NCBI GenBank assembly: GCA_965263355.1 | Contig: CBDHHL010000032.1 | Location: 2,176,001-2,240,000 of the forward strand | Length of the DNA stretch: 64,000 bases | DNA from: Leptolyngbyaceae cyanobacterium | GTDB taxonomy: Bacteria; Cyanobacteriota; Cyanobacteriia; Phormidesmidales; Phormidesmidaceae | Direction of reading: 5' to 3' | Shown here: piece by piece, positions 42,375 to 56,858 of the stretch | How the letters are laid out: each line of letters opens with the position of its first letter | How positions within the stretch are numbered: the first letter of the stretch is position 1 | The notes under the pieces: model-generated | Seen by the model: the letters and a program-made list of their open reading frames with translations, nothing else | Told to the model about the DNA's origin: nothing | Database searches by the model: none | Translations under genes and position numbers: made by a program

Positions 42375-45300
42375 GTGCCATCTGTTTCGATTCCTGAACA
42401 AGGTCAGCTTGTGGATGTCCGTCAGAGTCGCTTTGTGGTGACGGATGTTCAGCAGACGGTGATGCCAAAGGTGGCAGGACTATCGCAGGCTTGTCATAAG
42501 GTGACGCTCTCGTCGGTGGAGGATGATGCTCTAGGCCAGGAGCTGCAGGTAATTTGGGAACTGGAGCCGGGTGCCCATGCCTATGAGAAATCTGAACTGC
42601 CAGAGCCAACTGCTTTTGATTCGCCGGAGCGGCTGGATGCGTTTCTGGATGCGGTGCGATGGGGGGCGGCTTCGTCAGCGGATATTCGGAATGTGCAGTC
42701 ACCGTTTCGTAGCGGCATTGATATTGAAGACTATCAGCTTGATCCGGTCGTACGGGCAATTCAGATGCCACGGGTGAATCTGCTGGTGGCGGATGATGTG
42801 GGTCTAGGAAAAACGATTGAGGCGGGTCTGGTTGCTCAGGAGCTGATTTTACGGCAGCGGGTGCGGCGCATTGTGATTGTGTGCCCATCAGCGTTGCAGA
42901 TTCAGTGGCGGGACCAGATGCGGGATAAGTTCGGTCTGGATTTTCGCATTGTTGATAGCGACTTGATGAAGCGGCTGCGGCGACGTCGGGGCATTCATGT
43001 GAATCCGTGGACTCATTTTCCTCGGCTGATTACGTCGATTGATTTTTTGAAACGGGACCGACCGCTACGACTGTTTCGGGAGGTGCTGCCTGCGGAAGGG
43101 GACTCTATCTATCCGCGTCGGTTTGATCTGTTGATTTTGGATGAGGCCCATAATGTAGCGCCGTCGGGCAGTGGTCGCTATGCAATCGATTCTCAGCGAA
43201 CAGCGGCTATTCGGCTATTGGAGCCGCATTTTGAACATAAGCTGTTTCTGACGGCGACACCCCACAATGGCTACCCAGAAAGTTTTACGGCACTGCTAGA
43301 GCTATTGGACAACCAGCGATTTGCCCGTGGGGTGTCGCCCGATCGCAACCAGCTCCAAGTGGTCATGGTACGACGGCTAAAGCGGGAACTACCGCCCCGA
43401 TGGGATGGGACACCGCGCTTTCCAGAACGCAAGCTGGAAGCGATTGGGGTGGACTATAGTGCCGAGGAAAGGGCGGTCCACCAGCAGCTGCAGGAGTATA
43501 CAGAGCTGCGGTGTAAGGGGGCTGAGGATGATGCAACGGAACTCTATGCGACGAAGTTTGTGCTGAAGCTGCTGAAAAAGCGGCTGTTTTCGTCCCCCGA
43601 TGCGTTTCGTACCACGCTAGCGCAACATCAGCAGTCCTTGGTTTCGGCGACGCGGCAGAAAAGTAAACGGTTTGCCAAGCCATCGGTGGGCATTTTGCGG
43701 CGGCAGTTGGAGCAGGTGGACGAGGAATTTGCCGATGATGCTGGCTATGAGGGGAGTATGGAAGATGCGATCGCATCCTCTTCTCGTCTATTTCGCTTAC
43801 CGAGCCCCACCGAACAGCAGCTATTAGACGCCATGGCCGCCTGGGCTGAACAGGCATCACGACAGCCTGATGCGAAAGCGCAACAGCTGCTGGAGTGGAT
43901 CAATACCGAGATTCGACCTGATGACACCTGGTCGGACCAGCGGGTGATCATTTTCACGGAATATCGGGCAACGCAGAAGTGGCTGTATAACCTGATGGCA
44001 TCAGAGGGGATGGCCAGTGACGAGCGGCTGATGACGCTTTACGGCGGCATGGATTCTCAGGACCGGGAAACGGTGAAGGCAGCGTTTCAGGCGAAGCCGG
44101 ATGTATCGCCTGTCAGGATTTTGTTGGCGACGGATGCGGCCTCGGAAGGGTTGGATCTGCAAAACTACTGTTCGCGGCTGATCCATTATGAGATTCCTTG
44201 GAACCCCAACCGGATGGAGCAGCGCAATGGCCGCATAGACCGCCATGGGCAGCGGGCCGATGCGGTGCAGATTTATCACTTTGTGGGTAAGGATTACCAG
44301 ACTACGGCTACGGCAGGGGTGAAGCCGGGGGAGCTGGAGGGTGACCTGGAATTTTTGATGCGGGCAGCGCTAAAGGTGGATGCCATTCGCGAGGACCTGG
44401 GGAAGGTGGGACCGGTGATTGCGGCCCAGGTGGAAGAAGCGATGCTGGGGCAGCGGGTGATGCTGGATACTACCCGAGCTGAGCAGGAGTCGGCACCGCT
44501 GCGACGGATGTTGAAGTTTGAGCGCTCCGTTCGAGATCGCATCGAGCAGCTTAAGGCTCAGCTGGGTGAAACGCGCACTAATCTGCGGCTGACGCCGGAC
44601 AATATTGCCTCGGTGGTGTGTATTGGTCTGGAGCTGGCGGATCAGCCGGGGCTGATACCCGTAGATTTGCCGGACGCTAAGGGGCCAGCGTTTCAGCTAC
44701 CGGCGCTTAAGGGGAGCTGGGCGGCCTGCTCTGAGGGATTGGCCCATCCCCACACCCAGGAAATTCGACCGATTGTATTTGATCCTGATGTGGCTCGTGG
44801 TCGGGATGATGTGGTGCTGGTGCATCTCAACCATCGGCTGGTGCAGATGTGTTTGCGGCTATTGCGGGCAGAGGTGTGGTCGCGGCAGGGACGACAGCGG
44901 CTATACCGGGTGACGGCGCGGCGGGTGCCAAGCGATGCGTTGGAGCATCCGGTGGTGATTGCCTATGGGCGGCTGGTGATCCTGGGGGGCGATCAGCAGC
45001 GGCTGCATGAGGAAATGATCACGGCAGGTGGCACGCTCAAGGAGGGGCGCTTTAGCCGCTTGAATGTAGGTGAGGTGCAACGGGCGCTGGCGGCGGCGCT
45101 GCCGGAGCGGGTGCCTGAACCCATGGAAGAACGGCTAACGGCGCTGTGGCCCAGTCACCAGAATCAGCTGTTGCGATCGCTAGAGGTGCGCATGGCGGAT
45201 CGGACTCAGGGGCTGCAGAAAAAGTTGCAGGAACGCTGTGAGAAGGAAGTGGCAGATGTGACGGCGATTTTGACGGAGCTGCGGCAGCGGATTTTGAATG

Positions 45301-45518
45301 AGCTGGAGCAGCCTGAGGTGGAACAGTTAGAGTTGTTTAGCACCACGGAAAAAGAGCAGTTCCAACGCAATCAGACCAGCCTGCAATTGCGAGTCGAGCA
45401 AATTCCTGAAGAAATTGAACAGGAGACAGCCCTTATCCGGGAACGCTTCAGGGAGCCAACACCGCGATTATTTCCATTAGCGGTGACCTATTTGATTCCG
45501 CAGAAATTCATTAACTAA
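42375..45518 (+). CDS. drmD: DISARM-type SNF2-like helicase DrmD
   Basis: PEQGQLV.VR N-terminus, LDAFLDAVRWGA, ADDVGLGKT, DEAH, TATPHNG, PWNPNRMEQRNGRIDRHGQ. Confidence 0.85.
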   Translation: MPSVSIPEQGQLVDVRQSRFVVTDVQQTVMPKVAGLSQACHKVTLSSVEDDALGQELQVIWELEPGAHAYEKSELPEPTAFDSPERLDAFLDAVRWGAASSADIRNVQSPFRSGIDIEDYQLDPVVRAIQMPRVNLLVADDVGLGKTIEAGLVAQELILRQRVRRIVIVCPSALQIQWRDQMRDKFGLDFRIVDSDLMKRLRRRRGIHVNPWTHFPRLITSIDFLKRDRPLRLFREVLPAEGDSIYPRRFDLLILDEAHNVAPSGSGRYAIDSQRTAAIRLLEPHFEHKLFLTATPHNGYPESFTALLELLDNQRFARGVSPDRNQLQVVMVRRLKRELPPRWDGTPRFPERKLEAIGVDYSAEERAVHQQLQEYTELRCKGAEDDATELYATKFVLKLLKKRLFSSPDAFRTTLAQHQQSLVSATRQKSKRFAKPSVGILRRQLEQVDEEFADDAGYEGSMEDAIASSSRLFRLPSPTEQQLLDAMAAWAEQASRQPDAKAQQLLEWINTEIRPDDTWSDQRVIIFTEYRATQKWLYNLMASEGMASDERLMTLYGGMDSQDRETVKAAFQAKPDVSPVRILLATDAASEGLDLQNYCSRLIHYEIPWNPNRMEQRNGRIDRHGQRADAVQIYHFVGKDYQTTATAGVKPGELEGDLEFLMRAALKVDAIREDLGKVGPVIAAQVEEAMLGQRVMLDTTRAEQESAPLRRMLKFERSVRDRIEQLKAQLGETRTNLRLTPDNIASVVCIGLELADQPGLIPVDLPDAKGPAFQLPALKGSWAACSEGLAHPHTQEIRPIVFDPDVARGRDDVVLVHLNHRLVQMCLRLLRAEVWSRQGRQRLYRVTARRVPSDALEHPVVIAYGRLVILGGDQQRLHEEMITAGGTLKEGRFSRLNVGEVQRALAAALPERVPEPMEERLTALWPSHQNQLLRSLEVRMADRTQGLQKKLQERCEKEVADVTAILTELRQRILNELEQPEVEQLELFSTTEKEQFQRNQTSLQLRVEQIPEEIEQETALIRERFREPTPRLFPLAVTYLIPQKFIN

Positions 45519-45519
45519 T

Positions 45520-46228
45520 ATGGTTAGTCTGCAACATCCACCTCAATCTAACGATGGAATTGATCAAAGTAGTTTTCGCAAATACATTGATCAATTCCAG
45601 GTAGCTTTGGACGATGAAATTAGAGCGTTACGAAACTCTGGCGGTCAGCGAACCCACCTGACATCTGGGACTTATCTCAGCAGGCGAAGCAGTGGAAAAT
45701 ATTTGTACGGATTTGTAGCTGATAGTGAAATTCGGTTCCAGGATGAAACTCCAATCGAATTAGAGCTACGGAATAGAAGAAAATCTGAGCCCATAAAAGG
45801 GATTCTTGTTTCTGTTGATGGCTTTGACGTAACGTTAGCCCTAGAAGAAAAGATTGGGAAAAAGGTATCTGCGGCAACCTTAAATACCTCACCTATATTT
45901 CTCTTAGAAGCTTTAAAAGGAAGTTTTGAACAAACTAAAAATCAAGGCACCAAGGCCAATATATATCTGGCCAATTTGTTGTTAGATCCAGTAGGAATAC
46001 CTGCTATAGACTGTACTGGCAACGCACGTAAACTCCTGACAAAGCTAGAGGAGCGATTTAATCAAGCGATTATCCGAAACTCTTCTCAAGAGCGAGCTGT
46101 TGAACAGGTTCTAACTAATCGAATTAGTTTTATTTGGGGACCTCCAGGTACGGGTAAAACAACCACCCTAGGAATGACGGTAGCGGCATTAACCCAGGCT
46201 GGAGAGTCTGTTCTAATCCTTTCCCACA
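45520..46228 (+). pseudogene. SF1 (UPF1/DNA2-like) helicase N-terminal fragment, truncated by IS66
   Basis: NSSQERAV..FIWGPPGTGKTT..VLILSH; homology stops where motif Ia (S.N.AVD) would continue. Confidence 0.75.
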
Positions 46229-47869
46229 GACCGTCCCAGGAAATTAAAGAAAACTTAGGGAATGAGGGGCTCGAACTTCGTTAGGTTTTGAGTATGGATA
46301 AAGAGATCGAAATTGCTGGTATCAAGGTTCCGCAATCAGACTGGGAGGCAACACCGCCAAGCATCCAGTCATTAGTAACGGCATTGGTAGAACGTCTAAA
46401 CTGTCAGAGTGAGCAAATAGCCCAGCTAAACGAGCGTTTAAGCCAGCTGGAAGAACGGCAAAATCAGACCTCGAAGAATTCATCGAAACCACCCTCGACA
46501 GATGGGTTTGGCCAAGGAGTAAAGGCGACAAAGAAGGCGAAAAAACGAAGGAAGTCGAGTTCATCAGAGTCTCCTCCTCGTCAAGCCCGTACGCTCAAGG
46601 CGAGTGAAGAGTGTGAGCGGAGTTATGACGTGAAGCCAACCATGTGCAAGGACTGCGGAGCTGAGTTGAGTGGAGATGATCGCCATCCACATCGGCATCA
46701 AGAGATAGAGTTGCCACCGATTGAACCGTTGGTGATTGAATACCGTCTACATCAGCTGAGTTGTTCGGTCTGTGGAGAGATGACCCGAGCAGGCTTACCG
46801 TTAGGCGTTTCCCCCTCCGGATATGGAGAGCGTTTGAGTGCCATCGTGAGTCTGTTGAGTGGACCGTATCGTCAAAGCTATCGTCAGGTTTGTCGACTGA
46901 TGGATGAGGTGTTTGAGGTGCGATTGTCCCGTGGCAGTATTGGTCGTTTGCGCGCAGAGGTGAGTGCCGCACTCGCAGCACCCGTGTCAGAGGCAAAAAC
47001 GTATGTCCAGTCTCAGCCGAGGGTCCATAGTGATGAGACGGGATTTCCCCAAGGGAATAGTGATGGCAAGAACCCCAAGAAAACCAAAGGGTGGTTGTGG
47101 GTGTTAGTGACCCCGTTAGTGAGTTTTTTTGAGGTGGTGTTTAGTCGGTCTCAGGCAACGGCTAAAGCGTTGATTGGTGACGCTTATCCAGGGATTGTCA
47201 TCTCTGACCGCTGCAGTGCTTACACCTGGATTGACCCCGACCACTGGCAAACGTGTTGGGCACATTTGAAACGCGATTTTACGGCCATGGCTGAGCGCTC
47301 AGGGGCTTCCCAAGATATTGGTGATGCCTTGCTACGTCGTCAGAAGCGGTTGTTTCGTTGGTGGCATCAAGTCAGAGATGGCACCTTGTCACGTGAGCAG
47401 TTTATCACCCAGGTCAATCGCTTACGGGATGGCTTTAAAGGGGTACTCGAAGAAGCGGCATCACTACCGATTAAACCAAAGGAAAAGACGCCGTTGGCGA
47501 AAACCGTTAGGACCTGTCGCCGGTTACTGAAGGTTGAACCGGCCCTATGGACGTTCGTCTATAAAACTGATGTGGAGCCGACTAATAATTCGGCTGAGCG
47601 TGCCTTGCGACCCGCTGTGATTTGGCGACGTACTAGTTTTGGGTCTCAATCGCAAGGCGGCAGTCAGTTTGTAACTCGAATGTTAACGGTCACAACCTCT
47701 CTAAAGGCTCAGGGAAGACATATTCTCGATTTCCTCACACAGGTCTTATTAGCCAAACGCAAGGGAGACCTTGTTCCTTCGCTCCTTCCTCAATCAGACT
47801 TGCCGGTCTCAACATCCTCTAACGATAGAATATTGCCTGCTGCTTAAAAGACTAATATGAGGGACACTC
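46229..47869 (+). mobile_element. IS66-family element (single-ORF type)
   Basis: Imperfect ends GACCGTCCC..AATTA and TAATATGAGGGACACTC; both flanking genes are truncated at these points; no target duplication. Confidence 0.65.
46294..47847 (+). CDS. IS66 transposase
   Basis: NSSKPPSTD, C..CG zinc ribbon, HSDETG, SDR, QTCWAHLKRDF and PTNNSAERALR motifs. Confidence 0.93.
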   Translation: MDKEIEIAGIKVPQSDWEATPPSIQSLVTALVERLNCQSEQIAQLNERLSQLEERQNQTSKNSSKPPSTDGFGQGVKATKKAKKRRKSSSSESPPRQARTLKASEECERSYDVKPTMCKDCGAELSGDDRHPHRHQEIELPPIEPLVIEYRLHQLSCSVCGEMTRAGLPLGVSPSGYGERLSAIVSLLSGPYRQSYRQVCRLMDEVFEVRLSRGSIGRLRAEVSAALAAPVSEAKTYVQSQPRVHSDETGFPQGNSDGKNPKKTKGWLWVLVTPLVSFFEVVFSRSQATAKALIGDAYPGIVISDRCSAYTWIDPDHWQTCWAHLKRDFTAMAERSGASQDIGDALLRRQKRLFRWWHQVRDGTLSREQFITQVNRLRDGFKGVLEEAASLPIKPKEKTPLAKTVRTCRRLLKVEPALWTFVYKTDVEPTNNSAERALRPAVIWRRTSFGSQSQGGSQFVTRMLTVTTSLKAQGRHILDFLTQVLLAKRKGDLVPSLLPQSDLPVSTSSNDRILPAA

Positions 47870-48810
47870 AAAAAAGACTGAGCGCAATTAAAGCGAGTTC
47901 GGTCTTCACCAAAGGCCGCTAACAATCGTGGCGCTAAATGAGGCCCAGCCCCTGGCAATGCCTTAAAAAGTTCTGCATCCGGCAGCGATTCAAATAACGA
48001 GGCAATTTGACGCTCAAACACAATCAATTGCGACAAGACTACTTTCAATAAAGCGACTAAGCCTTGCATTAACGCTTGGGCTGGAATGGTGATAGCGTCG
48101 TCTCGCGTCAAGGGTGGCCCAGCGTCTTGAATTTGCTGAGTTCGCCGTTGAATCGTGGTTTTGCGAATGATGTGATGGCTACGAAAGAAGTCTCTCAAGA
48201 CATCAGCTGTAGCAGCTTGAGCCTCTTGTAAATTGGGAAACTGTTCAAGGAATTCACAAAACGCAATGGTGTCTTTATCTTCAAACCAGTCGAGCACTTG
48301 AGGAAAATAGGATTTGAGTGCGGCGGTGATCCGATTCGTCAGCCGGACCTTCTCACCCACTAACATGCGACGGGACTCAACCCATTGTCTCAATGCACGA
48401 TGCTTCGGACAACCTGATGTCCAGATATCAAGTTTTTCACCATGTTTTTGCATCAATTCGACGATCAGTTTGGCATCGATGGGATCCGATTTGGCCCGCG
48501 AGGGCTGAAACGCTTTGCGATAGTTCGCGACCGTTCGAGGATTAACGGGCACCAGCACCAAATTCTCGTATTGACATAGGCCATAAAGGAGGGGGCCGCG
48601 TTTCTGCTCCAACCCAACCAGCAACTTGGACTCTCCATAGGTTTTTCGTAAGCGATTGACCCAATCTGCAATGGATTGGGGCTTGGATTGAATCGTGCAA
48701 TGCTCCCAGGTTTCGTTCTGGCAGTCATAGAGCGCAATATCATGTTTACGATCTGCCCAGTCAATCCCGATATAAGCCGCATATGCTGTTGGACTTTGAT
48801 TGAGTTTCAT
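47870..48810 (-). pseudogene. IS110-family DEDD recombinase, 3'-truncated
   Basis: YIGIDWADRKHD, GLE, KSDPIDA, LPGAGP..RF; ends before the G..P...SG catalytic-serine region. Confidence 0.88.
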
Positions 48811-48849
48811 TGTGCTAAATTGAGGGTGTTTTTGTTTGACGGAGAGTCT

Positions 48850-49147
48850 GCCACCAGTCGCCTTGCGAAGTGATTATGGAAAGGGTTATTTCCCTGCTCC
48901 CTGAGGATTCGTTGGGCAGCGATTGGACTGGCTTGAAGGGCGATTCGATATGTTAGTAGTCATCTTCTGACTGGCGCTGCATAGTCGTCCCCCCAAGCTA
49001 GCAGATTCTCTCCTTTCTTGACTCTATGCTTTTTTCCAGATTTAGAACATCTAAAGGGAGGAGCGATACGATATGTTAGTAGACATCTATACTGTCGTCC
49101 AATGCATAGTCGTCTCCTCCCGTTTTTCTATGCTCGTCCCCCCATAA
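48850..49147 (-). ncRNA. putative IS110 bridge RNA in the left non-coding end (two target-type loops and one donor-type loop)
   Basis: Three stem/internal-loop/hairpin modules at about 49055-49122, 48931-48998 and 48854-48926; loop sequences match attC and the element terminus. Confidence 0.7.
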
Positions 49148-49227
49148 ACGCCCATGCACACCGACCGCCGAAGGTGGATCGGTGTGATGCAAAGGTTATC
49201 TGCAGCGGGTGATGGGCAGCGTTATGC
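49147..49227 (+). other. attC site 1 (R'' box displaced by IS110)
   Basis: CCCATGCAC pairs with GTGATGGG leaving an extrahelical G; ends in R' GTTATGC. Confidence 0.75.
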
Positions 49228-49248
49228 GGCAGTACTCAAAGGTGCTTT

Positions 49249-49626
49249 ATGAGGAACAGGACCGTTTTAATCTCTCTATTCATCTTTTCTGGATCCTATG
49301 CATTAGGGAGCGTAACAAAACAGATCCGTCCACATATTGATTCACCATTGATACACGACGCAATTTTGGGTTGGTTTCCAAGTTTTATCTACGTATTCGG
49401 AATGCTTTATGTCATTCCTATCTATAAGCATCTCCTTAACCAAAAAGAAACTAAGACTAATTTTGCAAAGCTCTTTATGTGGGGAACATGTGGAGCTTGC
49501 TCATACGAGTTCTTACAGCTATTCATACCGTCACGAACATTCAGCCTCTTGGATCGGATTGCGACTATTACAGGTGGCATTGCCTCATGGTATTTGTTCG
49601 TGTGGCTGAGTCTTGACAAAAGTTAA
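49249..49626 (+). CDS. small membrane protein (VanZ-like), cassette ORF
   Basis: Starts about 20 bp after R'; hydrophobic; YEFLQLFIPSRTFS..D motif. Confidence 0.55.
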   Translation: MRNRTVLISLFIFSGSYALGSVTKQIRPHIDSPLIHDAILGWFPSFIYVFGMLYVIPIYKHLLNQKETKTNFAKLFMWGTCGACSYEFLQLFIPSRTFSLLDRIATITGGIASWYLFVWLSLDKS

Positions 49627-49802
49627 CGAAACTCTCGCTTTACCATACAATTGAGTTTCAGGCAGAATATATGTACTATTAAATTAGTAATGGTCAGCTC
49701 AAGCTCTTGTAAATATAGCTTAAAGAAGCCTTAGAAACCTTTATGGGATATACGTTCTTTATAATAAGAGCTGTAGATTAAAAGCCTATTGATATCTATA
49801 CT

Positions 49803-50039
49803 ATGCTAGCCACTAGTGAATCACTCAAACAGGATATTGAAAAGCTCACTGACGAGCAGCTGCAGCAGGTTGCTGAGTTTATCGCTTTCCTTAGGTTTCA
49901 AGAAAAACGGAAACGTATAACTCTTGATCCAGTCCTTTTAGCTCCCCTTGCAACTGAATTTGCAGAGGAAGATCGTGAACTTGCAGAATCAGGCATAGGC
50001 GACTATTCGGATATGCTTGCTCAAGAAGATCAGCTATGA
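49803..50039 (+). CDS. putative antitoxin (DUF2281-like)
   Basis: IEKL.DEQLQQVAEFIAFL; ATGA overlap with the toxin gene. Confidence 0.7.
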   Translation: MLATSESLKQDIEKLTDEQLQQVAEFIAFLRFQEKRKRITLDPVLLAPLATEFAEEDRELAESGIGDYSDMLAQEDQL

Positions 50040-50389
50040 CCAAACAACTTCATCGTGGAGAAGTCTGGCTAGCAAACCTCGATCCTACCCAAGGTTCTGA
50101 GCAATCAGGTATTCGCCCTGTCATAATTTTTCAGAATGATATTGTTTCAAAGTTTTCTACAACAACGATTACTATTCCTCTGACAACAAATAAGCGTCGT
50201 GCCTCTTTGCCAATTTGTGTGATGATAAACCGAGGAGATGGTGGGTTACGACAAGATTCTGTTGCGCTTTGTTTTCAGCTTCGAGTACTGGATAAAACGC
50301 GATTAATTAAGCGTTTAGGACAACTCAACCCACAGACAATTGCTGTGCTGGAAGAAGTCGTTTTAGTAACCTTAGGATACGATTTATGA
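50036..50389 (+). CDS. mazF: PemK/MazF-family toxin
   Basis: RGEVWLANLDPTQGSEQSGIRPVII.QND and QLRVLDKTRL motifs. Confidence 0.9.
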   Translation: MTKQLHRGEVWLANLDPTQGSEQSGIRPVIIFQNDIVSKFSTTTITIPLTTNKRRASLPICVMINRGDGGLRQDSVALCFQLRVLDKTRLIKRLGQLNPQTIAVLEEVVLVTLGYDL

Positions 50390-50410
50390 AAGTGTTAACT
50401 TGCTGGGCTA

Positions 50411-50488
50411 GCATAACCCTACGCAGGAGCGGACGGACAGAAAATTCTAAATACTTGATAACATACTGACCGCCGCTCAGCTTCAACG
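50411..50488 (+). other. attC site 2 (split at G|TT by IS1111-type element; R' completed at 51976)
   Basis: GCATAAC-CCTACGCAGGAGCGGACGG...CCGCCGCTCAGCTTCAACG, then TTAGAC after the IS. Confidence 0.82.
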
Positions 50489-51975
50489 ACTATGAAGCCG
50501 TGAACGTGTCAAGTGGGTTTCGGCATATTTTTTCAGGGAGTCTCTCATTTTTTATCCACATCAATCTCTCATCTTGTTGTTGACTAAGATGCTTTGTCTT
50601 TGTTATTCAGAATGTCTTTTTGATTGAGAATCAATGAGGCAAAGTGGATTTAACCGACTGTCCGAGGTGTCAATGCTTTTGAACTTATGTTCTACTGCAT
50701 TGCCTCAAGAGTTTTTGCAAAGGTGCATGGCTTATAACTCCTACGGAGACGCTACGCGAACGTTAGGGCAACCTTGTTGCAGATTACGTGAAGCTTCAAG
50801 CTCATGCTAGAGTCTCACTTTGCTCTCTCCATTCTCTCTTCTAAATTTTGTTCTCTATGGTGTTGGCTGAGCTAACTCTGGATTCCACGGCTGGTTGTGT
50901 AACAACATCGCCCAACATCGCACCAACAACTTCCGGGCAACGGCTACAATCGCTGTTTTCTTGCGGGTCTTCTGTCCTCCACTAATGCGGGCATAAGTGG
51001 CTGCCGCCCATTCGTTGTGACGTAACATCAGCCAGGACACTTCCACTAATGCCGTTCGGAGTAATCGAGGGCCTCGTTTAGTAATCTTGCCCAGGCGATT
51101 AGTTTGACCAGACTGATGCTGCTGAGGAATTAATCCAGCATAGGCAGACACTTGTCGCGAATTCTTAAATCGCTTTGGGTCATCCAAACAGGTGACAATT
51201 ACCTCGGCGGTTTTACGGCCAACCCCAGGAATCGTCTGCAATAGTTGGATACGCTCCTCCTGCTTGGCAAGTAGTTCTAATTTCCGTTCAATCGTTGCCA
51301 GGTGTTCCCATAGTTGGTCCAGCATCGTTAATTCTAAATCTAATTCCCCACGCCATAGATTGGTCTCATTGCACTCCACGAGTACTCGTCGGTGTTGGCT
51401 TAATTCGTCAATCCCCTGAACGCTCCAGGCTCGGTGGCCTGATGGCATTTTCACACCTTGTTGATCAAACAACGCGCGAATCGCATATCGCATTTTGAAC
51501 TCGATTGATCCGCCAAACCACCACTTTACGATATTTCACTAAGTGCCGATATTGGCGACTCTCTGGGGCAGGCACGTACACAGGGTTAATCTGCTCCAAA
51601 GCAGCCAGTTTTGCTAATTTCAAGGCATCGTCTTTATCGGTTTTGCGTTTGACGTTTTTCCACCGTCAGGCTTCCTGACTGGGATCGGCCACCAATACTC
51701 GATAGTCTTCGGCAACGCAGAGATCGTTTACCCAGCCGGTAATTGAACACGTTTCCACTACCACCAAGTCTGGTTGAGTACGATGTAATATTTCTTTGAA
51801 TTCCCGTCGGTACGTCTTGAACGTGTCAAATTCAGTCGCGTTACTCTCCGTGTCCAGCAGACACGATACACAGTTGAATTTGCCCAGGTCGATCGCTAGA
51901 ATCTTCATAACGTTTCTCCAAGTGTCAGAGGGGATAGCTGGATGTCTATAGCCTCTCACGGCTTGCATAGATTCT
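50489..51975 (-). mobile_element. IS110/IS1111-type element inserted in attC
   Basis: Sub-terminal inverted repeats CTATGAAGCCGTGA and TCACGGCTTGCATAG; long non-coding region 3' of the transposase; removing it restores CAACGTTAGAC. Confidence 0.85.
50855..51908 (-). pseudogene. IS1111-type transposase pseudogene
   Basis: MKILAIDLGK..VVE..KTDKDDA..IPGVG..GLIP..QSG; in-frame TGA (probably from TGG) at 51666-51668 and a 7-bp ATGCGAT tandem duplication near 51480-51493. Confidence 0.88.
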
Positions 51976-52043
51976 TTAGACAGAGTCGTCTGCGGGCGAG
52001 AGAGTCGAGAAGCGCCCAGTAAGTATGGCGACAGCAGAAAGGG

Positions 52044-53315
52044 ATGACCATGCCGGACAGTTTCGACGAGTTGAAGCCATATCGTTCGCTACTACTCGCA
52101 TCTGTTCGAGCAAGGGTGCGTGTTAGGCCACTCGTGAACAGAATCCTCGATGACGTACAGACTATCGTCGAGGACGGTACCGCCCTGAACTTTGGCTCGC
52201 GTCTCAATGATTCCGCACAGGGTAGGATCCACGCCGGCTTCCTTCACTATGTGGAGCAGCGGGCACCGGGATGGAGCGCCGAGGGCGTCACTGATACGCT
52301 CAATCAGCTGGTGGTAGTGTGCCGACTACGGAGGTTGGTGGCGTTCTACGTCTCTGACACCCGTATGCGCAAGGCACTCAAGAGCCGATTCGGCGATTCG
52401 ACATTCCCTGGATTCAAGGTGCTAGAGCCAGTACCCCGCGGGCGGCTCAACGCGGCGTTCTTGCAGGGGCCTACTCGAACGCTGTGGCTTTCCGGTCCAC
52501 ACCGTTGCGGCGTGGACGGCGAGGCGGCCACTGCAGAGGTCGCGGACCTTCACGCCGAGGCGCTGCAACACCTACGTAGTCCTAGATGGGTCAAGATTCG
52601 CTACGAATCGGGCCACACCCTGAGCGACGGTGTCATCTTCGAGCAGCGGCACCGCGACATGCCGTTTCAGGGATTCAGCTTTGTCGACGTCTCTGCCTTC
52701 GACGTGAAGAAGGAGAAGCCCAACCCGATCACAGAAGTCGGGACAGGGCAAGACTCGCTGTTCGATTGGACACATCGGTTCTGGCCTAATCTCGACGGCA
52801 CACAGAAATTGCCTGGCGGCTTCTTGATCTCCGACGACGGTACGATGGAAATCGCAGACTTCGTCCACCTCGATCAAACAGATGACGTGCCGGTAGTCTC
52901 GCTAATCCACGTCAAGGCAGCCGGTAGCGATAGCTCGAACCGAGGCATCTCCGTATCTAGTTACGAAGTCGTGACCGGTCAAGCCGTCAAGAATCTGCGC
53001 TTTATGGACCAGCTAATCCTCGCCGACGGGCTGGCCGATGGCCTGGGCAGGGCCATCAGTGGTGTCGCATTCCACGACCGCAACCCGAGCACGAGGCAAG
53101 AGATGATCGACGCTCTTAGAAGCATCGGCTCAAACTACCGCCGGCGAGTCGTGATCGTGCAGCCTCACGTGACCCGTACACGCCACGATGCAGCGCGAGC
53201 CAACCCGGACTCTAGCGACGCGGCACGACTGCGCCAGTTGGACACACTTCTACTCGGCGCAGAAGCCAACGCAAATGCTCTTGGGGCTGAGTTCATGGTG
53301 GTCACATCCGAGTAA
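52044..53315 (+). CDS. cassette-borne protein with probable C-terminal PD-(D/E)XK-like nuclease domain
   Basis: DDG..EIADF..LIHVKAA..YEVV.GQAVKN; GC-richer than neighbours; bounded by TTAGAC and GTCTAAC. Confidence 0.55.
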   Translation: MTMPDSFDELKPYRSLLLASVRARVRVRPLVNRILDDVQTIVEDGTALNFGSRLNDSAQGRIHAGFLHYVEQRAPGWSAEGVTDTLNQLVVVCRLRRLVAFYVSDTRMRKALKSRFGDSTFPGFKVLEPVPRGRLNAAFLQGPTRTLWLSGPHRCGVDGEAATAEVADLHAEALQHLRSPRWVKIRYESGHTLSDGVIFEQRHRDMPFQGFSFVDVSAFDVKKEKPNPITEVGTGQDSLFDWTHRFWPNLDGTQKLPGGFLISDDGTMEIADFVHLDQTDDVPVVSLIHVKAAGSDSSNRGISVSSYEVVTGQAVKNLRFMDQLILADGLADGLGRAISGVAFHDRNPSTRQEMIDALRSIGSNYRRRVVIVQPHVTRTRHDAARANPDSSDAARLRQLDTLLLGAEANANALGAEFMVVTSE

Positions 53316-53373
53316 CGCTCCCACAGAAATCCTGAGCTGGTTTGGAGTGGGGGGTGCTCGTCTGCGGGACTCT

Positions 53374-53514
53374 GTCTAACAAGCATTTGAAGCTGACGGC
53401 GGCATTCCTAACGAGTGCAAGCAGAGGATCGGGCGGCAATCGGATTTGAGCAGATTGGCCCTTGCTTGCACCTATATTGGTTGCCGCCGCGGCTTAACTG
53501 CAGCTCCGTTAAAT
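53374..53514 (+). other. attC site 3 (141 bp)
   Basis: R'' GTCTAAC, GCGGCA/TGCCGC and TGCAAGCA/TGCTTGCA arms, R' GTTAAAT. Confidence 0.82.
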
Positions 53515-53544
53515 TACAATACAGAGGATGCCGTACGTGCAAAT

Positions 53545-54912
53545 ATGAAAGACCAATCTGAGCCTCGACAGATTTTCATAAGTTACGCGTCCGCTGACCG
53601 GCATGTGGCGGAGAGAATCAGTACGAAGCTCCGAGAAAGTGGTTTTCGTGTATGGTTTGACCAATGGGAAATTGATTTTGGCGACTCAATAACCGAAAAG
53701 ATTAACGAAGGCATTGAATCCAGTGACCTTATACTGGTTTTGCTTTCTCCTGAGGCAATTGAATCCAAGTGGGTAAAGGATGAATGGACGCAGGATCTAT
53801 CTAGTGAGTTAGACTACCGAGCAATCAACGTTGTCCCGGCTATCATACGAGACTGCGAAGTGCCGGCTCTACTCGCTAATCGCACTTCCCTTGACCTTCG
53901 TGTAGACTTTGAAGCGGGTGTCGAGCTTCTCAAACAGCAACTTGGCGTTGCGGTCACCATTGACTTCAACAAATTATCCTCGCGTGATTTCGAGAACCTA
54001 ATCGCAGATTTGTTAGTGGAACTTGGGTTCGATGTTGATTTGACAACCGCAACGAGTGATAGTGGCATCGACATTATCGCAACACAGAAGCGCGCCGATC
54101 CATTTGGTGGTCAGGTTCTTAACGAACGCTGGATGGTACAAACGAAACTTTACCGCGACAAACGCGTTGGAGTAGCGTTTTTGCGCGAGATCGTAGGCTT
54201 GATGCAAATGCATAAGGAATTCGATCAGGCGCTGATCGTCACAACAGGCCAAATCACTTCCATAGCGCACGAATACCTTGCCTCTCTAACCTCACGCGTC
54301 CGTGTAATCGAGGGCACGGAGTTGCAACGCTTGTTGATGCAGCATCCCGTTGTAGCTAATAAGATGGTCATAATGTCAACATCGACAGCATTGCGCCAAC
54401 GTCTTGGCAATTGCCCTGCGGGAAAAGATGGATGGCGCGAATTTGAGGATGCTTGCGTCGAGGTTCTCACATATCTCTTCGTGCCACCCCTCAACAATCC
54501 TGTTGAACAAGCTCGCTCTTATTCTGGTATCGATCGACGTGATGCAGTATTCCCAAATCGCAATTTTGAGATCACTAACAACTGGGGCCGTCTCTATCGT
54601 GAACTCGGGGCTCGAATGGTGCTCTTTGAATTCAAGAATTACAAAGAAACAGAAATCGGGAAGGAGGAAACAAACCAAACGCGAAACTACCTAACCAAGC
54701 CAATGGGGCGACTTGCTGTTCTTTGCTGCAACAAACTGCCAAATGATGCAGCCCACAGGAAACGTAATTCCATTTACAGTGAAGATGGCAAGGTTATCCT
54801 TTTCATCACCGCAGATGATCTTAAGGAGATGCTTTACATTAAAGACAGAGGTGACGACCCTTCTGATTTCATTATGGATTCTGTGGAGAAGTTCTACATT
54901 CAACACGAATAG
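53545..54912 (+). CDS. TIR + Mrr-like restriction endonuclease + second REase-like domain protein
   Basis: IFISYASAD..WFDQWEI..SKWVKDE TIR; FENLIADLL..DSGIDI..VQTK Mrr_cat; FEDAC..RRDA..FEFKNY second nuclease domain. Confidence 0.8.
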   Translation: MKDQSEPRQIFISYASADRHVAERISTKLRESGFRVWFDQWEIDFGDSITEKINEGIESSDLILVLLSPEAIESKWVKDEWTQDLSSELDYRAINVVPAIIRDCEVPALLANRTSLDLRVDFEAGVELLKQQLGVAVTIDFNKLSSRDFENLIADLLVELGFDVDLTTATSDSGIDIIATQKRADPFGGQVLNERWMVQTKLYRDKRVGVAFLREIVGLMQMHKEFDQALIVTTGQITSIAHEYLASLTSRVRVIEGTELQRLLMQHPVVANKMVIMSTSTALRQRLGNCPAGKDGWREFEDACVEVLTYLFVPPLNNPVEQARSYSGIDRRDAVFPNRNFEITNNWGRLYRELGARMVLFEFKNYKETEIGKEETNQTRNYLTKPMGRLAVLCCNKLPNDAAHRKRNSIYSEDGKVILFITADDLKEMLYIKDRGDDPSDFIMDSVEKFYIQHE

Positions 54913-54969
54913 CAATGCAATCTAACATAGTCCCTGAGGTGGACATGGAAAACGCCCCTGGCTCTGCAG

Positions 54970-55054
54970 CCTAAACCCTATGCAGGAGCGGACGGAATTT
55001 ACAATCCAGGCATCAATATCAAAATATTGGCCGCCGCTCAGCTCCACGTTCGGC
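54970..55054 (+). other. attC site 4
   Basis: CCTAAACCCTATGCAGGAGCGGACGG...CCGCCGCTCAGCTCCACGTTCGGC; preceded by a truncated R''-like ATCTAAC at 54920. Confidence 0.75.
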
Positions 55055-55198
55055 TGCAATCGAGAAAAGAGACTCTGGAGGAGCCAGATCGGCGGTGGAG
55101 CAATCGCCCGTTGGTCAGTTGAGCGTAATTCAGATATCCCAACTCGCGCTAGGTCCCATAAAGTTGTTGTCGATAGCGTCAGCATACATCTTGTCAAC
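55055..55198 (+). repeat. ~145-bp post-attC repeat, copy 1
   Basis: TGCAATCGAGAAAAGA...GCAATCGCCCGTTG...GTCGATAGCGTCAGCATACATCTTGTCAAC, also at 56450-56594. Confidence 0.85.
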
Positions 55199-55602
55199 GC
55201 CTGGCCAAGCCTCAAAAGTCCCATTAGCTATCGGCGGTCGATTGCCTCAATATTACGATCGCCAATCGCATTAACGACGAGTGCGCTCGGTGGGTGTGCG
55301 GGGACTGCCAATTGGCTAAGGTTGCATTTTGTCAACGGTTGGTCAGTGGCCAAGGTCCCAATGGATATCGGTGGATCGCCTGGGGTAAATGGTTTTGAGC
55401 GGTTGGTGAATGGGATGGGTTCGAGTTGCGATCGGGGTATCCCACCCATAGATTTCCCCCCGAACCCTCCGTTGGTGAAGACTGAGGTAGAACTATCAGC
55501 TAAACTTGAAACGTGCTGTGCAGCCACAGAAATTCTCTGAGCAGCAAGCGCTGTGTTGAATATTGCGCAAAGATGCTCGATTTCCTTTATGTTCACCACT
55601 GA

Positions 55603-56018
55603 ATGCCTCAATACGATTTTTATCACAACACAGTCAAAATAGCTTTACTGAAGGATGGTTGGATAATCACCGATGATCCATTCACAATCGAATTTGAAGG
55701 TGTACGACTCTATGCTGATTTAGGCGCTGAAAAACTTTTCTCTGCTGAAAAATCAGATCTTAAAATAGCAGTAGAAGTTAAGGTATTTGCGGGTCCATCG
55801 CTGATTACAGATTTGCAAAAACGGTGGGTCAATATGGCATTTACCGTAGCTTTTTGAGTCGTACTGAACCTGAACGCCAGTTATTTCTGGCAATCGCACA
55901 AGATATTTATCAAGATTTCTTTGAGCGTCCAGCTATCCAAGCAATCGTTGATGATTATCAGATTCAGTTGCTTATATTCGAGCCTAAGTCGGAGGAAGTT
56001 GTTGAATGGATAAACTAA
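55603..56018 (+). pseudogene. xisH: XisH-family protein, frameshifted
   Basis: KDGW.ITDDP..YADLGAEK..AVEVK; a 1-bp deletion at CAAAAACGGTGGGT breaks the QKA.GQY segment. Confidence 0.85.
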
Positions 56019-56341
56019 CGCATTACAGACAAGTCATTAATGGCGTGATTAGCAATCATGCTAAGTATCGGCCTAGTCATGGTCAAATTGAAACATTGCC
56101 ACTTTGTGATGTCCACAACGATAACTATTTACTTCTTGATCTAGGTTGGGATAAGACAGGTCGTGTTCATTCAGTCGCTATTCATATCCGGTTAAAAGCA
56201 GACAAAATTTGGATTGAATGGGATGGTACTGAGACTGGCATTACTGATGAACTCTTGGTAGCAGGTATTGCTAAAGAAGATATTGTCTTAGGTTTCTATC
56301 GACCTGAAAGGCGAGAAATTACGGGCTTTGCTGTTGCTTAA
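56006..56341 (+). CDS. xisI: XisI-family protein
   Basis: MDKL..YRQ.I, KIWIEWDGTE.GI and DIVLGF motifs. Confidence 0.9.
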   Translation: MDKLTHYRQVINGVISNHAKYRPSHGQIETLPLCDVHNDNYLLLDLGWDKTGRVHSVAIHIRLKADKIWIEWDGTETGITDELLVAGIAKEDIVLGFYRPERREITGFAVA

Positions 56342-56376: not shown

Positions 56377-56450
56377 GCCTAACCCTACGCAGGAGCGGAC
56401 GGAGGGTAAAATTTAGGTGGCGATGCAAAGTTTCTGACCGCCGCTCAGCT
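56377..56450 (+). other. attC site 5 (R' box deleted)
   Basis: GCCTAACCCTACGCAGGAGCGGACGG...CCGCCGCTCAGCT runs directly into the TGCAATC repeat. Confidence 0.72.
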
Positions 56451-56594: not shown

Positions 56595-56779
56595 TATGAC
56601 ATTTCTGTCCGTCGGCTCACAGGTTTGCCGCTGGCTTCCCTTAGACCCCTCCTCGCGGAGACGCCCTTGCCTTAAGCTAGTAGTTGCTGTCACTCGGCTC
56701 CTATAACTTTCGAGCATTTGGACTTGATCCTCCTACAGGGGACTTTCACCCCATTAGTTCACGCCCATGCTGGGCGTAC
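56595..56779 (-). mobile_element. group II intron (class C, attC-targeting) 5' fragment
   Basis: Minus strand starts GTACGCCCAGCATGGGCGTG..GGGGTGAAAGTCCCC (5' end and domain I); abuts ACCCTACG of an attC exactly within R''. Confidence 0.8.
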
Positions 56780-56858
56780 ACCCTACGCAGGAGCGGACGG
56801 ATTGAAAAATCAGACAATAATCAATAAACGCTGACCGCCGCTCAGCTTCCCGTTGGGA
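56780..56858 (+). other. attC site 6 (R'' interrupted by intron)
   Basis: ACCCTACGCAGGAGCGGACGG...CTGACCGCCGCTCAGCTTCCCGTTGGG. Confidence 0.75.

Follow-up and report, generated by a model that had tools for sequence, protein, structure and literature searches.

A cyanobacterial IS110-group left end with a probable bridge RNA of two target loops for attC sites

Introduction

Bridge RNAs of the IS110 group are described as consisting of one target loop and one donor loop, and a conserved clade with two diverged target loops would differ from this description. In IS621 and IS622 (ISCro4), as far as the available parts of the reports go, the RNA is encoded in the left end with the target loop before the donor loop and is associated with a junction promoter (PMC11208160, 10.1101/2025.05.14.653916, PMC13626964). 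In the portion of PMC11208160 that was available, each left guide equals its DNA site and each right guide complements it. The accessible sections on IS621, IS622, and CazIS110 also indicate that the loops work as separate modules (10.1101/2025.05.14.653916, PMC13626964, 10.1101/2025.10.25.684509).

In the DNA analyzed here, a stretch of 64,000 nucleotides referred to as the window, lies the left end of an IS110 element that probably targets attC by means of a bridge RNA with two working target loops, A and B, followed by a donor loop, C. Judged by its protein and by the position of its RNA, the element is a member of the IS110 group; it appears to work like an IS621-type bridge system and departs from it in loop number, core, and architecture. 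The RNA layout and the guide rule described above seem to be shared, the recombinase is of the DEDD type (the full-length relative P0001 matches 8wt6, E 1.1e-10), and a 5' stem-loop like that of IS621 and IS622 is found here in single-loop relatives. In contrast to the accessible accounts of IS621 and IS622, there are two target loops, B and C appear to be closed into a three-way junction, a subterminal inverted repeat of 9 to 10 bp is present, and the protein has about 420 amino acids compared with 328 for the 8wt6 chain. Donor and target have one T alone in common at the crossover, with no shared dinucleotide core, whereas the available text on IS621 gives a CT core.

The IS1111-attC group has reportedly also been treated by Tetu and Holmes in 2008 and by Post and Hall in 2009. 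For ISKpn4, ISPst6, and ISPa25 of that group, the accessible part of PMC11187229 describes RNA-guided insertion at one end of attC, no target duplication, and subterminal inverted repeats, all of which the present element appears to share. The RNA of that group lies downstream of the transposase with one target match described, whereas the present one lies upstream and has two target loops; the same portion of PMC11187229 states that duplication is not characteristic of the family. The present lineage would be one more IS110-group lineage among attC-homing elements, in this case in cyanobacterial cassette arrays with toxin-antitoxin and TIR/Mrr genes.

TIGR-Tas arrays reportedly hold several dual-guide units in tandem. 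The recombinase appears to have a related RNA-binding domain (NF052498, a weak match below the cut-off, E 1.5e-7), but here two units and a donor loop lie inside a transposon with a recombinase, and there is no repeat array. In CazIS110-1, according to the available sections, a free target loop exists and acts beside the full bridge RNA, as A might; however, the abundant RNA consisting of the target-binding loop (TBL) alone is a piece of a single loop there and not a second encoded loop with another guide (10.1101/2025.10.25.684509). The closest precedent is an IS110 locus with several predicted donor loops, which likewise has more than one guide loop. The accessible part of that source describes donor loops in one locus and tandem noncoding repeats beside IS110 at at least 95% identity, and contains no conserved, diverged second target loop (10.64898/2026.08.14.744561). 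No natural bridge RNA with two target loops was found in the literature, as far as the texts were available (including PMC13604230, PMC3971601, 10.64898/2026.10.21.760802, and 10.64898/2026.03.19.712850), nor was a description of an attC-targeting IS110-group lineage of the present type; absence from print is not proven by this. Two target loops per bridge RNA, compared with one in the described cases examined, are the novelty of the system.

Layout of the left end

Modules A, B, and C were located on the minus strand upstream of the IS110 gene, and all pieces quoted for them in the first-pass annotation mapped to the places given there (A, 49121 to 49056; B, 48998 to 48931; C, 48926 to 48854). 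The left end has the following parts.

49122 to 49146, minus strand: IS110 left terminus, with the TATGG start at 49146 and an imperfect subterminal inverted repeat (relatives' junctions; 9/10 bp complementary to the right end in L001)
49056 to 49121, minus strand: target-binding loop A, a predicted added, free-standing hairpin (mapping, alignment, covariation, guide-site match)
49106 to 49099 and 49079 to 49072, minus strand: left guide TGCATTGG and right guide CTAACATA of loop A
49014 to 49055, minus strand: A-rich linker with the conserved hexamer TAGAGT at 49026 to 49021 (hexamer in the relatives' alignment)
49001 to 49013, minus strand: predicted closing stem around B and C, 5' strand (consensus fold, double-sided changes at columns 157 to 166)
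48931 to 48998, minus strand: target-binding loop B, in the putatively ancestral position (mapping, consensus fold, covariation)
48981 to 48974 and 48956 to 48949, minus strand: left guide TGCAGCGC and right guide CTAACATA of loop B
48854 to 48926, minus strand: donor-binding loop C (mapping; relatives' ends)
48906 to 48899 and 48879 to 48873, minus strand: left guide CCTCAGGG of loop C, identical to the right-end sequence, and right guide CCATAAT, complementary to the joined ends
48841 to 48851, minus strand: predicted closing stem, 3' strand (single-sequence and consensus folds)

The closing stem (49013 to 49001 with 48851 to 48841) was absent from the earlier description; it surrounds B and C and not A. 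The A and B sequences of the window share 78% identity across 55 nt (E 1.2e-5). The 321 nt of the minus strand folded at -101.2 kcal/mol with a z score of -2.22, and 4 of 100 shuffled sequences folded equally well. The folding proposed earlier was thus modestly upheld, except that the two sides of the internal loop of A were partly paired with each other, not open, in the minimum free energy structure. By itself, the single-sequence fold supports the layout modestly; the comparison with relatives supports it far more strongly. No further copy of the left end was present within the 64-kb window, and no Rfam match was obtained for the left-end RNA. A scan of 48750 to 49300 for sigma-70 promoters and terminators detected nothing, including no full sigma-70 match at the linker.

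The recombinase gene downstream of the RNA is interrupted.

47866 to 48810, minus strand: IS110 DEDD recombinase gene, truncated after about codon 315 (PF01548, E 2.6e-27; NF033542, 114.9 bits)
46233 to 47865, plus strand: IS66-family element cutting the recombinase gene (PF03050; ends and flanks)

The match to PF01548 was above the cut-off, indicating that the DEDD RuvC-like domain is present. The NF033542 score of the window copy was under the cut-off of 140, and that of the full-length P0001 was 172.9. P0001 is 97% identical to the window protein and contains the D17, E68, D109, and D112 motifs as well as a C-terminal Tnp domain (PF02371) with the catalytic-serine motif at 323 to 328, which is absent from the truncated copy. 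The window recombinase thus has no catalytic-serine region, and the element has no right end. Because the gene is cut by the IS66 element and the C-terminal part and the right end are missing, the window copy is evidently dead and unable to move by itself. The two 8-bp flanks of the IS66 element differ, without a duplication, pointing to a deletion. The nearest named relatives, at 95% protein identity, were found in Leptolyngbya sp. PCC 7375 and Heron Island J.

Conservation of the RNA among relatives

Relatives were gathered by protein (33 loci in genomes and 59 in metagenomes) and by left-end DNA, and the parser returned 102 distinct left junctions. In this count of loops per element, which had been suggested earlier, two target-type loops with a usable flank were found at 50 of these and one loop with a donor loop at 16. 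The remaining junctions had one loop and no donor loop seen (35, many of them at contig ends, uncounted) or no flank (1), and the parser missed B in L027. The two-loop left ends comprised 33 nonredundant cyanobacterial sequences at <95% identity, all of which kept the layout; their recombinases are about 65 to 95% identical to P0001.

The full alignment (A1) contained 32 relatives and the window. L014, whose linker is 100 nt longer, was left out of it and kept in the alignment of A and B modules (A2, n = 68). In the module alignment, 94.3% of the cells in the stems pair, compared with 84.4% in shuffles (0 of 500) and 36 to 52% in slid registers. Double-sided changes were detected in 6 of 13 stem pairs, a pair count that was matched by 36 of 500 shuffles when taken by itself. 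These changes agree with the covariation expected for the modules from the window alone. The consensus fold contains a covarying closing stem around B and C, with A outside. Column conservation was alike in the loops of A and B (0.82 to 0.93) and was 0.55 in the linker. The linker hexamer was TAAAGT or TAGAGT in 24 of 33 rows and TAnnnT in 30 of 33; it is possibly an internal -10 element or a processing or cut site.

Element ends and donor loop

Intact relatives start with TATGG and end with CCTCAGGG(A/C)CTAT. Their right flanks begin with GTTAG in 30 of 47 cases and with GTT in 44 of 47. The insertion point lies between T and GTTAG, and no duplication is formed, as indicated by empty sites of the attC family of the window and by empty and filled alleles in sequencing run X1. 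The terminus had been read as TTATGG in the first-pass annotation; TATGG from 49146 does belong to the element, and the T at 49147 belongs to the target according to the empty sites and the empty allele.

The left guide of C is the sequence of the element's right end, which is invisible in the window alone since that end is gone, and in intact relatives the right guide of C complements the joined ends. Moreover, guide and end change together in single-loop relatives: in L213 and L223, the donor guide and the right end both become CCTCAGAGG. These matches identify C as the probable donor loop. The proposal that the RNA is an IS110 bridge RNA, in which A and B are target loops and C is the donor loop, held in the tests on relatives. 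In L049, L148, and L187, palindromic inserts of about 25 nt break the left guide of the donor loop, possibly representing a small repeat element that targets the guide.

The spacing between the -35 sequence and TAT in the right ends was 17 nt in 32 of 47 relatives and 18 nt in 14 of 47. We infer that abutted ends place the TTGAC -35 sequence 17 to 18 nt before a -10 sequence built from the TAT of both ends and so form a junction promoter. No contig containing a circle junction was found in the four sequencing runs examined (4/4). When runs were searched with the element of a relative (L208), part of it was present in 20 of the 23 listed runs, one of which was an RNA run with a share of 0.07. 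An RNA contig of X20 spans part of the left end with 9 differing letters in 192; it is silent on ends, strand, and level and was given no weight in either direction. The right guide of A and B is longer by two bases (TA), which match the donor side of the product junction and may correspond to the handshake guides described for IS621 in the accessible part of PMC13626964.

Target sites

The element in the window adjoins an interrupted attC site.

49147 to 49227, plus strand: interrupted attC site (sequence; hairpin test passed; unoccupied sites of this family in G001, with a spacer of 6 nt)
49147 to 49152, 49153 to 49160, 49208 to 49214, and 49221 to 49227, plus strand: spacer, L'', L', and R', respectively; R'' missing

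The box names (R'', L'', L', R') follow the usual attC nomenclature. The site has the attC architecture (R''-spacer-L'' ... L'-spacer-R', complementary arms, and an extra base in L''). R'' was not replaced by the element, contrary to what had been thought; it lay beyond the right end, and this end has disappeared along with the 3' part of the element at the IS66 junction.

The strict attC hairpin test was passed by 30 of 50 two-loop flanks, compared with a mean of 0.6 and a maximum of 3 in shuffles. Together with the flank in the window, this supports attC as the target proposed in the earlier reading. The stricter expectation that all homologues insert at attC was met in part: several of the failing flanks look like degenerate attC by eye, but a few (L145, L179, L206) do not. 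A cruder classifier passed 23 of 50 flanks. In the two-loop relatives, the insertion point was fixed and lay at one end of attC, and spacers of 5 and 6 nt were both used. A division of A and B by spacer length (6 versus 5 nt) was considered and was unsupported (Fisher P = 0.24).

Some flanks were unusual. The left flank of L017 is a short tandem repeat and not attC, yet it matches guide A at 8/8, and a rearrangement is possible. L179, L202, and L204, all from G022, have a left flank in common, which did not pass the attC test and is possibly part of another mobile element; its empty form exists in run X1, and the G022 copies carry two variants of the A guide. In L163, the left end is joined to the apparent right end of a single-loop sister, which could be a donor-to-donor junction or an insertion beside the sister.

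Origin of the second target loop

Distant relatives (about 40 to 50% identity) have one target loop that, by eye, matches their own, different flanks. There is also a single-loop group in cyanobacteria; it too inserts into attC, and a plain 5' hairpin precedes its closing stem at the place taken by A and the linker in the two-loop elements. This hairpin at the place of A suggests that B and C are ancestral and that A is the addition. Quick trees placed the two-loop elements in two subclades, in an unresolved fork with the single-loop clade, and a single origin of the duplication was neither shown nor rejected (support, 53). L010, L107, and L184 appear to have arisen by deletion between A and B, and B is interrupted in L180. 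L010 keeps a B-type guide and sits in an A-type site, a pattern that would fit the loss of A after insertion.

Match between guides and insertion sites

The match was scored for 48 distinct triples of guide pair and site (of 50), using 8 guide bases and the best of four registers. The better loop matched at 6.67/8, compared with 5.88 when sites were shuffled (0 of 20,000; n = 48). Whether left guides track the insertion sites had been proposed as a test. For A they did, since shuffling A among elements never reached the observed match (0 of 20,000). For B the outcome depended on the set: the shuffle gave P = 0.0075 over the 48 triples but was not significant on attC sites only in the structure-fixed register, either with the strict test (2,370 of 20,000, P = 0.12, n = 29) or with the cruder classifier (2,869 of 20,000, n = 22). 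With one site per guide pair, the B shuffle gave a median P of 0.014 and a worst value of 0.33. The shuffles overstate independence because elements and hosts are related, and the B shuffle errs on the conservative side owing to the similarity among B guides. Six of the 48 sites fit neither loop above 5/8, and the purity of sites for one loop was not above chance (3 mixed compared with 4.4, P = 0.29).

Single cases were also informative. In the window, the left target on the minus strand (49158 to 49149) matches guide A at 7/8 and guide B at 5/8; this insertion site speaks for A only. The near-identical elements L038 and L039 were split, the site of the former matching A at 8/8 and that of the latter matching B at 8/8. 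L115 sits in a site that matches A at 7/8, and its own unusual B guide matches two empty attC sites on the same contig at 10/10. The match is to the same family as the four attC-like sites of the window.

These data bear on the main rival to the use of both loops, which we regard as unlikely. According to it, A alone picks new targets by loose matching, and B is retained as a component of the three-way junction with C, serving excision, circle formation, or folding, and is attC-like by ancestry. A was the better loop at 28 of the 48 sites (B at 16, with 4 ties) and covaried with the sites much more strongly, the B-only shuffle failed on the attC-only sets, and it is B, not A, that is enclosed with C. 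In addition, single-loop relatives tolerate at least 3 mismatches: they averaged 5.5/8, with 7 of 14 at ≤5, in a set that includes the three deletion derivatives and misses several single-loop elements. Such high mismatch tolerance can mimic a second guide. However, 15 of the 48 sites fit B at ≥6 and better than A by at least 2 bases, and the B guide of L115, with 5 of 10 positions unlike the modal B, exactly matches the local attC family. B guides also widened the coverage of an independent pool of 16 sites from the single-loop clade, where B ranked within the top quarter among alternative guides of equal divergence for 16 of 21 pairs. On a small and biased pool of 26 empty attC sites, in contrast, only 12 of 21 B guides reached the top quarter, which counts against the use of B.

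It is improbable that recognition of attC by the recombinase rests mainly on the folded hairpin of the bottom strand and the invariant right guide, with left guides of minor importance and the duplication serving the dosage or stability of TBL RNA. The proportion of flanks passing the strict attC test is compatible with this explanation, as are the target stem-loop reported, in the text available, as a specificity determinant for ISPpu10 and the dominance of TBL-only RNA in the accessible part of the CazIS110 report (10.1101/2025.10.25.684509). However, the left guides covary with the sites on the attC-only set as well (2 of 20,000, compared with 0 of 20,000 overall), and L145 matches its own variant of A at 7/8 at a site failing the attC test. 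Furthermore, a dosage copy needs no fixed guide differences, but the left guides of A and B differ by 3 to 4 fixed positions in 41 of 48 cases. Very improbable, and largely refuted by conservation, is a tandem duplication that is neutral or recent and in which one loop decays. L010, L107, L184, and L180 indicate that loss of the second loop can occur, but both loops have been conserved, with compensatory changes, across two deep subclades in which the linker has diverged.

The case for A as a working target loop is therefore strong, and that for B is good but not closed. The use of both loops is made probable by the statistics and the single cases. The earlier suggestion that two loops give access to several attC families gains from the same data; the part concerning B is weakened by the attC-only shuffle, which was not significant.

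Proposed mechanism

The layout, ends, target, covariation, and guide-site match rest on sequence comparison, and from these we infer transcription, protein binding, and the use of both loops. Circularization would abut the ends and create the junction promoter, with the -35 TTGAC, 17 nt, and a -10 sequence from the TAT of each end, which would transcribe A, the linker, B, C, and the recombinase gene. A first recombinase dimer would bind donor loop C and read the joined ends, and a second dimer would bind A or B. The pairing of one donor-loop dimer with a dimer on either A or B, giving two attC addresses, is the likely mode of action. Each target loop would read the bottom strand of attC: its left guide would match about 8 nt across L'' and the spacer, the common right guide of A and B would read T-GTTAG of R'', and 1 nt of slack would absorb spacers of 5 and 6 nt. 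The element would then enter between T and GTTAG without a duplication. B and C would represent the ancestral three-way-junction RNA of about 173 nt, and A an old duplicate in place of the 5' hairpin that may act within one transcript with them or, after release, as TBL-only RNA. The divergent left guides would widen the range of attC families open to one element.

The pattern suggests a natural RNA-guided recombinase with two addresses. If so, it would show that a target range can be widened or changed without losing the old target, by duplicating a loop and then retuning it. A duplicated and retuned target loop would make guide evolution directly testable, and a single RNA of this kind may serve as a ready-made scaffold for multiplexed bridge recombination. 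A more tentative extension is that the locus forms a natural minimal guide array, in which A is separately expressed or processed (with the junction promoter for A and an internal promoter or cut site before B and C) and the guides are retuned independently to the attC families of the host. In that event, one enzyme would switch addresses, possibly representing a step from single bridge RNAs toward TIGR-like multiguide arrays.

Surrounding cassette array

The left end lies in a cassette array with the following features.

42375 to 46284: DISARM DrmD helicase and, after it, a helicase-like gene interrupted at the IS66 end (NF038317, 1,382 bits)
49249 to 56341: cassette cargo, comprising a VanZ-like protein (below the Pfam cut-off), a PemK/MazF-type toxin with a small upstream gene, TIR and Mrr nuclease, and XisH/XisI
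50411 to 50502, about 54970 to 55050, 56380 to 56450, and 56778 to 56850: four related attC-like sites with degenerate R' boxes
50855 to 51968, minus strand: second IS110-family gene in the same array, fragmented and unrelated looking (PF02371)
54920 to 54944, minus strand: second footprint of the same IS110 family, about 18 nt of the right end joined to R'' of the TIR/Mrr cassette (sequence comparison)

The right-end remnant at 54920 to 54944 indicates that the IS110 family hit the array at least twice. No integron integrase was recognized among the part of the window's open reading frames that was scanned, so the array may be a cluster without an integrase. One cargo open reading frame (52044 to 53315) is GC rich and encodes 423 amino acids without a Pfam match. 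A partial defense locus (DISARM DrmD) adjoins the cassette array.
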